NCBI GenBank assembly: GCA_018238155.1
Contig: JABCTZ010000003.1
Span: 1 to 64,000, forward strand
Direction of reading: 5' to 3'
DNA from: Candidatus Heimdallarchaeota archaeon
GTDB taxonomy: Archaea > Asgardarchaeota > Heimdallarchaeia > JABLTI01
Length of the DNA stretch: 64,000 nucleotides
A model generated the notes under the pieces. That model saw only the letters and a program-made list of their open reading frames with translations, had not been told where the DNA came from and did not search any database. A program made the position numbers and the translations under genes. Positions 28,097 to 33,820 of this stretch are shown piece after piece; the stretch's first letter is position 1; every line of letters starts with the position of its first letter.

Positions 28097-28822
28097 TTGC
28101 CTACATTAAATCGTGAAAAATTAGCAAAATTAATTACTTATTCAATTGGAAAGGAAATTCCACGAGATAATGCTTTAAGAAGGTTCGTTGAAGACGAAGG
28201 AAAAAAGAAGAAATATCAACCACTTGGTTCATTTTATCTTAGAGGAGTAGATATAGATGGTGTTATCAGTTTAGTTTTGCCAAAGAAAACATCTTCAGAT
28301 GGATTGGATCATTATCTCTTTGTTTGGTTTTCCAAAAAAAACATCTCAGTAACCAAAGATGGAGCCCATGCAACACTACAAATAAAGTCAGTTAATCCAA
28401 TGAGATTCTCTATAAGAGGAAAACCAGATACTTTCGTGAAGGTTCTTGGAGAAAGTTCTATGATCCAAAGTATTCTCGTAGAATTGGTTGACGATTTAAA
28501 ATGCCTAGAAAATTTCACTATATTTAACAAAACAAGCTCTCAAAAAGACGCTATTATTGAAATTCCAGAAAATTTAATCGATTCACGTTTCATAGTTCAA
28601 ACAATGGTTTCCGATGAACCGACTTCACCAACTTATGGGAAGTTAGAGCGAATGGAAGTTACTTTACCTCAATTAATCGATTTAGCAAATTATTCTATGA
28701 TGACAGGTCTGAAAATGTTCGGACCAATGAATGAATTTTCCAATTTCTGTCCACATTGCGGGAAAAAATTACCTCATGGTAAAAGCGGTTTCTGCATTCA
28801 TTGTGGAAAGAATTTAGAGTAA
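28097..28822 (+). CDS. Hypothetical protein with C-terminal double zinc ribbon
   Basis: FCPHCG...FCIHCG. Confidence 0.75.
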   Translation: MPTLNREKLAKLITYSIGKEIPRDNALRRFVEDEGKKKKYQPLGSFYLRGVDIDGVISLVLPKKTSSDGLDHYLFVWFSKKNISVTKDGAHATLQIKSVNPMRFSIRGKPDTFVKVLGESSMIQSILVELVDDLKCLENFTIFNKTSSQKDAIIEIPENLIDSRFIVQTMVSDEPTSPTYGKLERMEVTLPQLIDLANYSMMTGLKMFGPMNEFSNFCPHCGKKLPHGKSGFCIHCGKNLE

Positions 28823-28846: not shown

Positions 28847-31732
28847 TTATTTTTTATTTCTTAAAAGGGTGAAATCTATTTCCAAATCTTCATATTTAAG
28901 ATATTTCCGGCAGCTGGGACAAATGTTTTTTGCTTTTATTTCCATGATAAGATGTTCTAAATGATACGGTATTTTGCAATGTTCACAATAAATAATCAAT
29001 TCATTATACTTTATTGGAATCATACAAGAATGGCATATCAGAGGTTCATATCCACAATCCGGACATGTTGTTTCTTTTACATTGAACTCAGTTGAACAGT
29101 AAAAACAATTATGTTTGTCTCCATTATTCGAAATATCAAATATTCGTAGAATTCTTTCATTATTATGGGTAAAATTACCAATTCTTTTCAAAATACTGCT
29201 TTTTTGCCAACATTGTAGAATATCCACAATCTTTTCTTCTCTAATTTTCAGGTTAGCAGATAAATCTCTAATTTCTACTTCGGACTGGTCGTCTAAAAAG
29301 AACAGAATTCTAAATAATTTCTTCTTATCATTTTCTATCTTCTCTTTTGAAGCACCTTCTGTTGAAATAATTACACTTTTAATTCGCTGCACTCCAAATA
29401 CAATACTTGTTATCATTATAAACAAACCAATAATCATCAAACTGATTGTCCAATATGGGAAATGAGGATAACTATTTGGATTATTTGGGTCAGTATTTCG
29501 ATCAACCTCTTCTCCATCCGAAAAACCATCCCCATCTGTATCTGCCACTAATGGGTCTGTTCCGTAGATGTTCACTTCATCTCCATCTGAAATTGTGTCA
29601 TCATCTGTATCCCAATCTAAAGGATTTGTTTTATGGAAATTTACTTCATCTCCATCAATTAACCCATCTGCATCCGTATCCTTATTGAAGGGATCTGTGC
29701 CAAAATCTTTTTCTAATTGGTTGGATAATCCGTCAAAGTCAAAATCACCTGAGATTATTTCCATTGTATTATCCCTTTCGATAGCGTAGATATACTCCTG
29801 ATTCTCTGAAAAACCCGTATAATACTTTTCAGTACCGTATGCAGCTATTTTTACAGGATTTTCACTTTCTGAAATATCATAGATTTTCACAGGTGCATAT
29901 GTACCATAAGTATATTCTAAATTAGCATAAGCAAATAACATCTTTCCAGCAAGATAAAGTCCCCCAAATCCATTATCATCTATGTTCTCAAGAACCACAA
30001 TTTCATGTGGGTTTGAAATGTCTACAATTTTCAAATAGATTGCTGCAATGTAGGCTATATTTTCAATAATTGCAAAACTTGAACCCCTAATCATTGTTAT
30101 AGAATCTGTGATTTGTGGTGAATTTATATCAGTTATATCTATAATAGTAAATTTGGAACTAGAATCTTTATTGAAGAGATTCGTCTCAAGTACATAAATA
30201 AATTCATCTTTAACGCTAATTTCGGTTGCAGCTAGGTAAGTATTTATTTGATTAATTTTTAAAGGATTATTTGGATTGGAGATATCGATAATCTCAACTC
30301 CATCAAACCCATCCGCAAGAAACAAATAATCGTCGACTATGCATACATCTAAAGCATTTCCTCCGTCAAAAAAGAGACCTATTCTTACTGGATTTTCAAT
30401 ATTGCTTATATCCACGATTTCTAAACCTAACTCAAGATTAGCAATAAATAATAGATTATTAGCAACCTCAAAATTGACAATATCACCACCTGCATCATAT
30501 TGCGAAACAAACGTGGGATTAAGTGAATCACTACAATTAATGATTTTAATACCGCCCCATCTTTCCGCAATAAAAACAAAATCATTATCATTTTCCAAAG
30601 TTTGAGCAACTCCTCCACAAGTATGGGTTAACTTTATTGGATTTGCCGGTGTGCTCAAATCAAATATTTCTAAACCATCTCCTACTTCTTCTATTACAAA
30701 TAGGCTGCTACCATTTATCGAAAGACCGACTGGCAATCCTCCATCACTAAATGTAGATAGTATTTTTGGATTCAAAGGGTTACTGTGATTAATAACAATA
30801 ATACCACCTAACGAATATGGTTCATAGCTATAGTTTCGGGTTGTAGCAATAATTGTAGTATTACCAGAAATAACTAATTCTATTGGAACTCCTCGATTAA
30901 TTTCCAGTTCGCTAAGTTCTATTGGATTGCTTTTATTACTAACATCAATAATGGTATAATCATTTTCTTTAGATGTAAGGTATACATAATCATTCGCATA
31001 AACAATATCTGTGATTATTTTATCTAAAATTAATTCGGATTTTTTCACTGGATTTTCCGGGTTTTGAAAGCTATAGATCATTAATCCGGTCTTGGTTCCA
31101 ATGTAAAGGAAATCATTACAAGCATCAATTCCTCTTACTAATTCCGATGAAAAATATATATAACCTAGATTAAATTGATCTCCAAGGTTTTCAAGGTCAT
31201 GAATTTCTACATTGAAACCAGTTGTGCAGTAAAAAAAATCTCCATCTATATCAATATCCTTTCCACCATTAACGTATTCTGCATGATATAAATTAGGATT
31301 CATGATATCTGCAACATCTATGATATAAATTTCATCATAGGCTGAATACGTACAATATAATTTGTTGTTATTATAGATGATTTTACTTGGTTGTATATCA
31401 GTACGTATATTCATAGTATTCTCTAAAATAGGTTCTAAAGGATTAGATATATTGTAAAAAAATAATTTATTTTCACCAAGAACATACGCAATAGAATTTG
31501 CTACACATACATCAATCATTTTACCCAGAAGATTATTTTCGAAAAAGGCTATTGTTTCATATTCTCCAGCTAAAGGAATAACATTACTGGAAATAGTTTT
31601 TTGGGTTGAAAAATCATTATTCGCAGAATTTTTATGGAGAACATTTACTGAAAAAAACATGGAAAAAACTAAGATAATGAATAGTGGAAATACTATTAGT
31701 TTTAATCCATGCTTTTTGTAAAGTATTCTCAT
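28847..31732 (-). CDS. Single-pass membrane protein: LVIVD propeller, DxDxDG repeats, TM, winged-helix-like region, zinc ribbon and RING-like finger
   Basis: LVIVD repeats; DTDxDG repeats; TM WTISLMIIGLFIMITSIVFGV; CFYC..CPDC; CHSC..CEHC..H..H..CPSC. Confidence 0.85.
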   Translation of the reverse strand: MRILYKKHGLKLIVFPLFIILVFSMFFSVNVLHKNSANNDFSTQKTISSNVIPLAGEYETIAFFENNLLGKMIDVCVANSIAYVLGENKLFFYNISNPLEPILENTMNIRTDIQPSKIIYNNNKLYCTYSAYDEIYIIDVADIMNPNLYHAEYVNGGKDIDIDGDFFYCTTGFNVEIHDLENLGDQFNLGYIYFSSELVRGIDACNDFLYIGTKTGLMIYSFQNPENPVKKSELILDKIITDIVYANDYVYLTSKENDYTIIDVSNKSNPIELSELEINRGVPIELVISGNTTIIATTRNYSYEPYSLGGIIVINHSNPLNPKILSTFSDGGLPVGLSINGSSLFVIEEVGDGLEIFDLSTPANPIKLTHTCGGVAQTLENDNDFVFIAERWGGIKIINCSDSLNPTFVSQYDAGGDIVNFEVANNLLFIANLELGLEIVDISNIENPVRIGLFFDGGNALDVCIVDDYLFLADGFDGVEIIDISNPNNPLKINQINTYLAATEISVKDEFIYVLETNLFNKDSSSKFTIIDITDINSPQITDSITMIRGSSFAIIENIAYIAAIYLKIVDISNPHEIVVLENIDDNGFGGLYLAGKMLFAYANLEYTYGTYAPVKIYDISESENPVKIAAYGTEKYYTGFSENQEYIYAIERDNTMEIISGDFDFDGLSNQLEKDFGTDPFNKDTDADGLIDGDEVNFHKTNPLDWDTDDDTISDGDEVNIYGTDPLVADTDGDGFSDGEEVDRNTDPNNPNSYPHFPYWTISLMIIGLFIMITSIVFGVQRIKSVIISTEGASKEKIENDKKKLFRILFFLDDQSEVEIRDLSANLKIREEKIVDILQCWQKSSILKRIGNFTHNNERILRIFDISNNGDKHNCFYCSTEFNVKETTCPDCGYEPLICHSCMIPIKYNELIIYCEHCKIPYHLEHLIMEIKAKNICPSCRKYLKYEDLEIDFTLLRNKK

Positions 31733-31885: not shown

Positions 31886-33820
31886 ATGAGAATTCAAATA
31901 TCTTCAACCTCAGGTTTTGCTAAACTAGCTAAATTAAAGGAGAATTCAAAGATAGTTGAAACACCAACCATTATGGCAATTTCAAAAAAATCGGATGCTT
32001 TTTTTTGGGCGATTGGCGATCGAAAAGAGAGATTTTCACTGAATCTTCCTCCAAGATATTTATCAACTGAATTATCTATGACTGAAGATTATGATTTTCA
32101 ATTCATAGCAAATTTATTCATGCACAAATCTTTATCGGAGAATATAATTGAAAAACAATTAAATAAAACACTAGAAGCTCTCCGGAATTCCGTTGAAAGC
32201 TATTCAAAAGAAAATTCATTGGTTATTATTCAACCCACAAAGTCAGAACGAATCTTTGAAAAGATTTTGAATGAGCTAAATGATCTTGGATTACAAAATA
32301 TAGCGATAACTAATCTTTTACCAATGATCAATAATTCTCGCCAGATGATTGATTTTATTGCTAATTTAAAAATAGCGCTTCCTTTTAACAGTTTATTATT
32401 TCTATTATCTCCAATACCTCATACTCATATGCCAATATTGGCTTATTCTGGGATAGATGTTTTTTCGAATGGTTTTGCAAATATCGCCGCGAAACAGCGT
32501 TTATATTTAACTGATGCCGGTGGAAATAAGTTAGAAGATTTGAATGAATTAACTTGTTTTTGTGAAATGTGTTCAAAGCATACAGAACCAGAAGATTTCA
32601 TTTCATCAATTACTAAATCCAAAGTTGGTGAACTTTATCCACTCATAATACACAATGAACTGATATTTGAAAAGAAAATACGCGAAATTCGTTCTGCAGT
32701 AAAAAAACAAAATCTAAGAGGATATGTTGAACAAGCAATACAAATTAATCCCTTTAGTGCAGGTGCTTTAAGACTATTAGATAAAGAATGGTCTGATTGG
32801 TTAATTGCAAGAACACCAACTTGGTCAAATGTGCCAATAAAAAGCATTACTTCATATGGTTTTACTCGTCCCTCAATTAGTGAATTTCAAAGAAGAATTC
32901 ATGAACGATTTATCATACCAAGTTCAAAAAAAGTTATAGTTATTTTACCTTGCTCAGCTAGAAAACCATATTCTCAATCAAAAAGCCATCAGAAATTTAA
33001 TACTGCAATCAGTAGTATAGCCAACAACAAGAAGGGCTACATTCAGGAGTTAATCTTAACTTCCCCATTAGGAGTAATACCTCGAGAACTAGAATCAGTG
33101 TATCCTGCCGCACATTATGATATTCCTGTTACAGGTGATTGGTCATATGAGGAGAAGCAAATTGCAATAGATCAACTTGTGGGTGTTTTATCCGATATTG
33201 AATCTGATGTGACTATCATAGCACACATAGCCGGAGAATATATCGAATTATGTCAAGAAACAGAAAAAATCCTGGAACGATCATTTATTTACACCTCTAA
33301 AAATTCACGAGCTACTACAGCTACTTCCTTAGATAGTTTAACAAAAGAAATCAATAAAGTAGTTGAATCACTTCCCACGATGAAGTTCTCAGCTGACACA
33401 AATAAAATACGAAAAATAGCTGATTATCAATTTGGGTTAAGTGTTGGAGAAGCAATGTTTCCTGAGGTTTATTCTCTAAAGGGCAGACCTCCATTACCAT
33501 TTAAAATTCTGAGACAAAATCAACAACATGGCGTGATACATTATACTACCGGAAAGTTAACTCTTTCAATGAAAAACGGTGGAATACTGGCTAAAAAGAA
33601 AAAATACTTTGTTATGTTTGATGGGGAGAAACTTGAAGGATCAACTCTCTTTGCAGTTGGTGTCAAGAAAGCAGACCCTGAAATAAGACCATCAGATGAA
33701 GTAGTTATTGTGGATAAAAATTATACTCTCCTTGCTGTCGGTCATGCTCTCATATCTGGACGAGATATGGAAACAGTAAAATTTGGTGCAGTTGCCAAAA
33801 TTAAAAACAAAGTCAAATAA
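31886..33820 (+). CDS. arcS: Archaeosine synthase subunit alpha (TgtA2)
   Basis: TGT-like N-terminus; LPCSARKPYS.S.SH, TSPLG.IPRELE.YPA.HYDIPVTG.W; C-terminal PUA domain. Confidence 0.92.
   Translation: MRIQISSTSGFAKLAKLKENSKIVETPTIMAISKKSDAFFWAIGDRKERFSLNLPPRYLSTELSMTEDYDFQFIANLFMHKSLSENIIEKQLNKTLEALRNSVESYSKENSLVIIQPTKSERIFEKILNELNDLGLQNIAITNLLPMINNSRQMIDFIANLKIALPFNSLLFLLSPIPHTHMPILAYSGIDVFSNGFANIAAKQRLYLTDAGGNKLEDLNELTCFCEMCSKHTEPEDFISSITKSKVGELYPLIIHNELIFEKKIREIRSAVKKQNLRGYVEQAIQINPFSAGALRLLDKEWSDWLIARTPTWSNVPIKSITSYGFTRPSISEFQRRIHERFIIPSSKKVIVILPCSARKPYSQSKSHQKFNTAISSIANNKKGYIQELILTSPLGVIPRELESVYPAAHYDIPVTGDWSYEEKQIAIDQLVGVLSDIESDVTIIAHIAGEYIELCQETEKILERSFIYTSKNSRATTATSLDSLTKEINKVVESLPTMKFSADTNKIRKIADYQFGLSVGEAMFPEVYSLKGRPPLPFKILRQNQQHGVIHYTTGKLTLSMKNGGILAKKKKYFVMFDGEKLEGSTLFAVGVKKADPEIRPSDEVVIVDKNYTLLAVGHALISGRDMETVKFGAVAKIKNKVK

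Follow-up and report, generated by a model that had tools for sequence, protein, structure and literature searches.

The window analyzed here is a 64,000-nucleotide stretch of a Candidatus Heimdallarchaeota genome (contig JABCTZ010000003.1, which is contig C21 of a 4.08-Mb, 46-contig assembly). Near its middle, the reverse strand encodes a receptor-like membrane protein whose C-terminal tail ends in a RING-type zinc finger. We hold it to be about an even proposition that the tail of this surface protein is a membrane-bound part of the ubiquitin system, acting either as a RING E3 ligase or as one partner in a pair of RINGs, and brings the cell's single ubiquitin-charged conjugating enzyme (E2~Ub) to membrane-proximal targets. 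The gene and its parts are listed below; TM stands for transmembrane.

28847..31732, (-) strand: receptor gene (P0001), a single open frame of 961 aa without stops; type I membrane protein, receptor-like
31640..31696, (-) strand: N-terminal hydrophobic helix, residues 13-31, preceded by basic residues; signal peptide or signal anchor (Kyte-Doolittle mean of 2.48 in a 19-residue window)
29753..31555, (-) strand: LVIVD-repeat beta-propeller region, residues ~60-660 (Pfam PF08309), predicted extracellular
29462..29719, (-) strand: TSP3-type repeats, calcium-binding and membrane-proximal, residues ~672-757 (Pfam PF18884)
29390..29446, (-) strand: TM helix, residues 763-781, ISLMIIGLFIMITSIVFGV (hydropathy 2.59; checked in the translation)
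29135..29365, (-) strand: leading helix and PCI-type winged helix, residues 790-866, predicted cytoplasmic
29054..29107, (-) strand: zinc ribbon CFYC-x10-CPDC, residues 876-893, zinc site 1, modeled as a pair of beta hairpins
28910..29035, (-) strand: RING-type finger with C4H2C2 ligands, residues 900-941, zinc sites 2 and 3, including S902, E931, and P939
28850..28909, (-) strand: last 20 residues past the final Cys, with R942 at the "linchpin" position and then a short conserved hydrophobic strand (EIDF here)

A sequence-only reading of positions 28847-29460, which correspond to residues ~758-961 (the TM helix and the tail), had proposed a membrane E3 ligase. The single TM helix, the CFYC..CPDC ribbon, the eight-ligand finger, and the HLIMEIK segment (residues 927-933) that it described are all present in the translation where it placed them. 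The finger follows the pattern C-x2-C-x12-C-x2-C-x4-H-x2-H-x10-C-x2-C, realized here as CHSC-x12-CEHC-x4-H-x2-H-x10-CPSC. The propeller that it had placed outside the cell was confirmed by a Pfam search with the whole protein, in which PF08309 matched five stretches at E=1.3e-23 (82.4 bits against a cut-off of 20.2); the repeats number 10 by a strict motif and ~13 by eye. The same search identified TSP3_bac (PF18884) in four stretches (E=6.7e-18, 64.6 bits against a cut-off of 25), and three D-x-D-x-D-G..D..E motifs begin at residues 685, 708, and 731. The tail proper comprises 180 residues (782-961) and opens, directly after the TM helix, with a basic stretch (QRIK...KEK...KKK). Because this stretch fits a cytoplasmic tail by the positive-inside rule and because the zinc sites need the cytoplasm, we infer that the propeller faces outward and the tail inward.

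To collect homologs, the tail was run with HMMER exhaustively against 1.84 billion representative proteins, which gave 251 proteins at E<=1e-3; a protein homolog search limited to lengths of 528-1682 aa had returned the query alone. Another assembly carries a protein of equal length (961 aa) that falls into the query's 90%-identity cluster. The whole architecture (LVIVD, TSP3, TM helix, and tail) is common to eight of the nine best matches (856-955 aa). The LVIVD region is shared by P0002-P0009, of which P0005 is a 210-aa fragment, and the outer part of P0010 (1155 aa) has TSP3 repeats only. P0004, the nearest full-length homolog, gives an alignment of 902 residues with 31.6% identity. The homologs come from metagenome-assembled genomes (MAGs) labeled Heimdallarchaeota or "Asgard group," and every one is annotated as a hypothetical protein. 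That eight LVIVD homologs from other Asgard MAGs keep this architecture end to end argues that the fusion of ectodomain and tail is under selection. As a side observation, P0009 is labeled Bathyarchaeia, and the single match of the tail profile in genome contigs, JAENXI010000209.1 (2252 bp), is binned as Bathyarchaeota; these labels may reflect misbinned Asgard DNA or the presence of the family outside Asgard archaea.

Within the tail, the metal ligands stand out. All 12 Cys and His ligands of the ribbon and finger are invariant across ten collinear homologs, including the eight of the RING (C900, C903, C916, C919, H924, H927, C938, and C941), and they are invariant or at least 90% conserved across 79 family representatives. 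Tail identity among the homologs is merely 24-35%, so the motif pattern is not due to chance. The Pro of C-P-x-C and the core hydrophobic residues are likewise invariant, the TM helix keeps its position in 10 of 10 homologs in the tail alignment, and the alternating hydrophobic segment past the last Cys is present in all homologs aligned.

The predicted fold of the tail is that of a winged helix, a ribbon, and a RING. A single-sequence AlphaFold2 (AF2) model was unusable (predicted local distance difference test score, pLDDT, of 36) and was replaced by a model built from the 79-row alignment (pLDDT 89), whose finger matches RING and U-box domains in superposition. The family profile, compared with the Protein Data Bank (PDB), matched WDR24 (4.5e-9), WDR19 (5.2e-9), RNF4 (5.5e-9), and RNF126 (1e-8), as well as RNF24, EL5, and many RING-H2 ligases (RNF4, RNF126, RNF24, and EL5 lie between E 5e-9 and 1e-7). 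In Pfam, 59 of the 79 family representatives match zf-RING_2 (PF13639) and 55 match Prok-RING_1 (PF14446).

The finger could also be read as a PHD-type reader, or the whole as tandem zinc ribbons unrelated to ubiquitin. Its spacing, C-x2-C-x12-C-x2-C-x4-H-x2-[H], equals that of a PHD finger except for His in place of the sixth Cys, and by itself the query finds its best Pfam matches in "double zinc ribbon" models (Zn_ribbon_6, 25.8 bits). However, both the family profile and the structure model point to RING and U-box domains, and most family members carry after ligand 6 a helix with the RING-H2-like signature L-x-E-W-[LIV]-K. The fold and profile matches listed for the tail are all RING or U-box, with no PHD finger among them, although these lists are not exhaustive and the point is one of absence from them. 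We regard the PHD or plain-ribbon explanation as extremely improbable. The earlier proposal was to fall if the tail folded as a PHD finger or as plain zinc ribbons; the structure model and the profiles did not bring it down, and its RING-like finger is predicted to have a RING fold.

The winged-helix-like segment was likewise recovered, by the structure model and by fold and profile matches, as a winged helix with a preceding helix, similar to the C-terminal subdomain of PCI proteins. Its profile matches are Zalpha domains (E 3e-5), TFE, Lrp/MarR-type helix-turn-helix proteins, and ribosomal protein S25. These matches, and the fact that zinc ribbons often bind nucleic acids, would suit a membrane-tethered regulator whose winged helix and zinc fingers bind DNA or RNA once ectodomain engagement releases or activates the tail, a role we consider very unlikely. 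Comparisons with DDRGK1 of the UFM1 E3 complex and with the PCI winged helices of CSN, the proteasome lid, and eIF3 all scored under the family thresholds, and the winged helix is a very common fold.

The genome supplies the components such a tail would serve. It encodes one ubiquitin (77 aa, ending in GG; C1:30532-30765), three E1-like genes of the ThiF type, and one catalytic E2 (157 aa; C3:20117-20590) with the HPN...C motif and the RING-binding residues F (in FPF) and P-A (in TPA). The lack of an E2, a second ground on which the ligase proposal could have failed, therefore does not apply. Two further proteins of the E2 fold are UEV-like: they keep HPN, have lost the catalytic Cys, and carry long coiled-coil tails.

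C21:137967-138677, (-) strand: UEV-like protein, 236 aa, on the contig of the receptor gene and outside the window
C13:47171-47989, (-) strand: UEV-like protein, 272 aa

Both resemble the UEV-Vps23 proteins that have been reported from Asgard archaea (bioRxiv 10.1101/2023.07.25.550441). The genome has 19 zf-RING_2 matches, and the tail as query retrieved ~20 paralogs of the ribbon and RING module, whose scaffolds differ widely and include several single-pass membrane proteins; many of the paralogs pass Pfam zf-RING_2 by themselves. Among the RING genes we also observed three small genes in tandem (about 150-220 aa each; C1:130453-132955, (+) strand), each with a canonical RING bearing V and W and at least two with N-terminal TM helices, which represent a local expansion of membrane RING proteins. 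A 436-aa paralog with two TM helices (C4:72465-73793, (-) strand) keeps the winged helix and ribbon, and its finger has decayed with loss of both His ligands (CKLC...CASCGVFGRENNITGFLFIDHICESC).

We examined how the module and the E2 family are distributed in 201 genomes drawn evenly across the phylum. The module profile was found in 139 of the 201 and UQ_con in 143. At family level, the tallies for module and UQ_con were 0/43 and 1/43 in f10, 0/5 and 0/5 in f20, and 1/7 and 1/7 in f23, and all other populated families were positive for both. These nearly identical distributions argue for a functional tie between the module family and the E2. By its sequence, the cassette can be placed in a large Asgard family of ribbon and RING modules that appears to travel with the eukaryote-type E2.

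From these elements a mechanism may be proposed. The LVIVD propeller and the calcium-binding TSP3 repeats would face outward, joined by one TM helix to the cytoplasmic cassette of winged helix, ribbon, and RING with its three zinc sites. Binding of something by the ectodomain would cluster or reposition the tails, and the RING, alone or paired with a canonical RING of a paralog, would then recruit the cell's only E2~Ub to act on substrates near the membrane or on the receptor itself. The products might feed into the UEV-Vps23/ESCRT route.

In overall design, the protein is like the eukaryotic PA-TM-RING proteins (RNF13, GRAIL/RNF128, and plant RMR; PMC12552968) and ZNRF3/RNF43, in which a binding domain in the lumen or outside the cell is followed by a single TM helix and by a cytoplasmic RING close to the C terminus. 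Unlike them, it has LVIVD and TSP3 repeats and no PA domain by Pfam, an additional winged helix and ribbon, and a C4H2C2 finger rather than a RING-H2 C3H2C3 finger. Of the parallel to RNF43, ZNRF3, and GRAIL drawn by the sequence-only reading, the layout thus stands; the PA ectodomain and the RING-H2 ligands are not found, and the nearest relatives of the ribbon and RING unit are instead the tails of IFT-A and GATOR2/SEA proteins. The resemblance is one of design, with no sequence relation beyond the RING superfamily. With canonical RING E3s (RNF4, RNF126, EL5, Rad18, and RING1B) and with small RING E3s encoded in ubiquitin operons of archaea (Caldiarchaeum srfp, PMC5654768; Helarchaeia, bioRxiv 10.1101/2023.07.25.550441), the tail shares the cross-brace RING fold, the eight ligands, the C-P-x-C end, and the helix after ligand 6. 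Here too the genomes carry ubiquitin, E1, and E2. In contrast to these ligases, its ligands are C4H2C2 (not C3H2C3 or C3HC4), it is fused to a receptor-like membrane protein, and it has Ser and Glu where Ile/Val and, in RING-H2 domains, Trp stand.

Several observations weigh against a ligase role, foremost the residues through which RINGs contact the E2. We mapped these sites on the alignment and compared 10 members of the receptor branch with 68 other family members.

Between C1 and C2: V in 48 and I in 15 of the other members; S in three, V in two, L in two, and A, C, and T once each in the branch; S902 in the query
Four residues after ligand 6 (the RING-H2 Trp site): W in 56 of the others; H in four, Y in three, and F, E, and D once each in the branch; E931 in the query
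Pro of C-P-x-C: invariant in family and branch; P939 in the query
After the last Cys (linchpin site): R or K in half of the others; mixed in the branch, with N in three, H in two, S in two, and R, T, and L once each; R942 in the query

In the query, S902 replaces a V or I kept by 63 of the 68 others and E931 a W kept by 56. The receptor branch never has W at the Trp site, its linchpin position is unconserved, and in P0004 the first two contact sites are occupied by Ser and by an acidic residue. The hydrophobic E2 contacts of a competent RING E3 are therefore not found in the query, where P939 is the sole residue retained. The sequence-only reading had noted the missing E2-contact Trp, and E931 does stand in its place; the loss proved more serious than it had supposed, extending to S902 and to the LVIVD branch as a whole. 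The alignment thus shows a zinc scaffold under strict selection in a branch that has given up the E2-binding signature kept by its paralogs and by the wider family.

Other points tell in the same direction. The query alone stays below the Pfam cut-offs of every RING family (Prok-RING_1, 24.2 bits for the tail and 13.3 for the whole protein, against 29.1), so its membership of the RING superfamily is supported by fold and family profile and not by its own Pfam score. The genome's lists of zf-RING_2 and Prok-RING_1 matches do not include the gene, and when the protein was searched alone against PDB sequences, the RING matches were all nonsignificant (best E 0.048, TRIM37). No ubiquitin gene lies near the receptor gene, and the surroundings of three homologs had nothing in common. 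Moreover, the co-occurrence described above covers the whole module family rather than the LVIVD branch, and the sampled genomes are related, not independent. Finally, by sequence and fold the nearest counterparts of the ribbon and RING unit are the C-terminal domains of IFT144/WDR19 and of GATOR2/SEA subunits, whose tail RINGs have a demonstrated structural role, heterodimerizing and holding a cage (PMC9646525).

This kinship was examined more closely. IFT144/WDR19, IFT122, WDR24, WDR59, MIOS, and Sea2/3/4 share with the query a CxxC..CxxC ribbon directly upstream of a C4H2C2-type RING. The query ribbon aligns with the zinc ribbon ahead of the RING in both WDR24 and WDR19, and in WDR24 it is followed by C-x2-C...C-x2-C-x4-H-x2-H-x10-C-P. 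The unit may share common descent. The remainder differs. The IFT-A and GATOR2/SEA proteins are soluble coat subunits of beta-propeller and alpha-solenoid whose RINGs build the cage, whereas the query has an extracellular LVIVD propeller, an intervening TM helix, no solenoid, and a PCI-type winged helix before the ribbon. The protocoatomer architecture, a cytoplasmic WD40 propeller with an alpha-solenoid, is not found in it.

The altered contacts and this kinship bring in a noncatalytic RING. Here the ribbon, RING, and PCI-type winged helix would form an assembly or docking module with no E2 binding of its own, which oligomerizes receptor tails or pairs with another RING, and the protein would be a surface adhesin or sensor with a scaffold-building tail. 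BARD1, BMI1, and MDMX would be models for it, as would coat-like proteins such as Sea2/3/4, WDR24/WDR59/MIOS, and IFT144/IFT122. We consider this the main alternative and a real possibility, held tentatively and falling short of an even chance. Against it, eight of the ten branch members keep H, Y, or F at the Trp site, six have a nonpolar residue (V, L, A, or C) at the first contact site, and the Pro of C-P-x-C is invariant. Given these residues at the first two sites, E2 contact may survive in an altered form. In known RINGs, this Pro contacts the E2 (c-Cbl P417). Some eukaryotic RINGs are active although they lack the Trp, and in Parkin RING1 the first site is Thr. A modeled complex of the ribbon and RING (residues 868-961, 78-row alignment) with the genome's E2 (53-row alignment) and three zinc ions scored 0.01 and 0.13 against a mark of 0.32; it was run without controls and weighs neither way.

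For the proposed membrane component of the ubiquitin system, the balance is as follows. Of the membrane E3 ligase that the sequence-only reading had put forward, the topology of ectodomain, TM helix, winged helix, ribbon, and RING, the RING fold, and the genome's ubiquitin, E1, and E2 hold, and the contact residues S902 and E931 speak against it. Ligase activity is plausible yet weaker for the query than for its paralogs because the E2-contact sites are not kept, and this weaker form fits the nearest relatives, the SEA/GATOR2 and IFT-A tails, which use their RINGs to heterodimerize and hold a cage. An Asgard cascade of E1, E2, and a small soluble RING E3 is active in vitro (bioRxiv 10.1101/2023.07.25.550441); because it has already been reconstituted, an assay to decide between the readings exists.

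A further proposal would see in the Asgard ribbon and RING cassette the prokaryotic ancestor of the RINGs used for assembly in GATOR2/SEA and IFT-A. The query would then be a partner RING that does not bind E2, wired to a surface propeller, and tails clustered by a ligand together with canonical paralog RINGs would switch on ubiquitylation at the membrane, in active and inactive pairs like BRCA1-BARD1. We judge this unlikely.

Coupling of the cell surface to ubiquitin-dependent sorting through receptor-type membrane RING ligases is regarded as eukaryotic. The same layout in an archaeal genome with ubiquitin, E1, E2, UEV-Vps23-like proteins, and ~20 related RINGs makes a pre-eukaryotic origin of this coupling testable. 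Comparison of the query with a canonical paralog from the same genome would reveal whether a division into catalytic RINGs and structural or partner RINGs already existed in Asgard archaea; such a division is known from eukaryotic RING heterodimers and from the GATOR2/SEA and IFT-A cages. We found no description of an Asgard ectodomain-TM-RING architecture in the literature searched, the coverage of which was incomplete; new here are a branch with LVIVD propellers and the finding that it has lost the E2-contact signature.

Inspection of the ubiquitin and E2 loci for an operon with a RING gene found none, the genes being scattered. In one Asgard MAG (L047:4551-8841), the gene of homolog P0008 follows immediately after those for the proteasome beta and alpha subunits, on the same strand, an arrangement not seen in the two other homologs checked. 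In the window, the neighbors of the receptor gene are housekeeping genes, for RNase HII, an RsmB/F-PUA methyltransferase, and a TGT/DUF5591/PUA enzyme. A 241-aa open reading frame (28097-28822, (+) strand) converges with the receptor gene, the two stops lying 24 nt apart; it has a C-terminal CPHC-x11-CIHC zinc ribbon with weak Pfam matches to DZR/Zn_Ribbon_1 only, and the rest is without a family match. On the other side, divergent and 153 nt upstream of the receptor gene, a 644-aa frame (31886-33820, (+) strand) contains a partial TGT domain, DUF5591, TGT_C2, and PUA, and its predicted product is a tRNA-guanine transglycosylase/ArcS-type enzyme of the archaeosine pathway.

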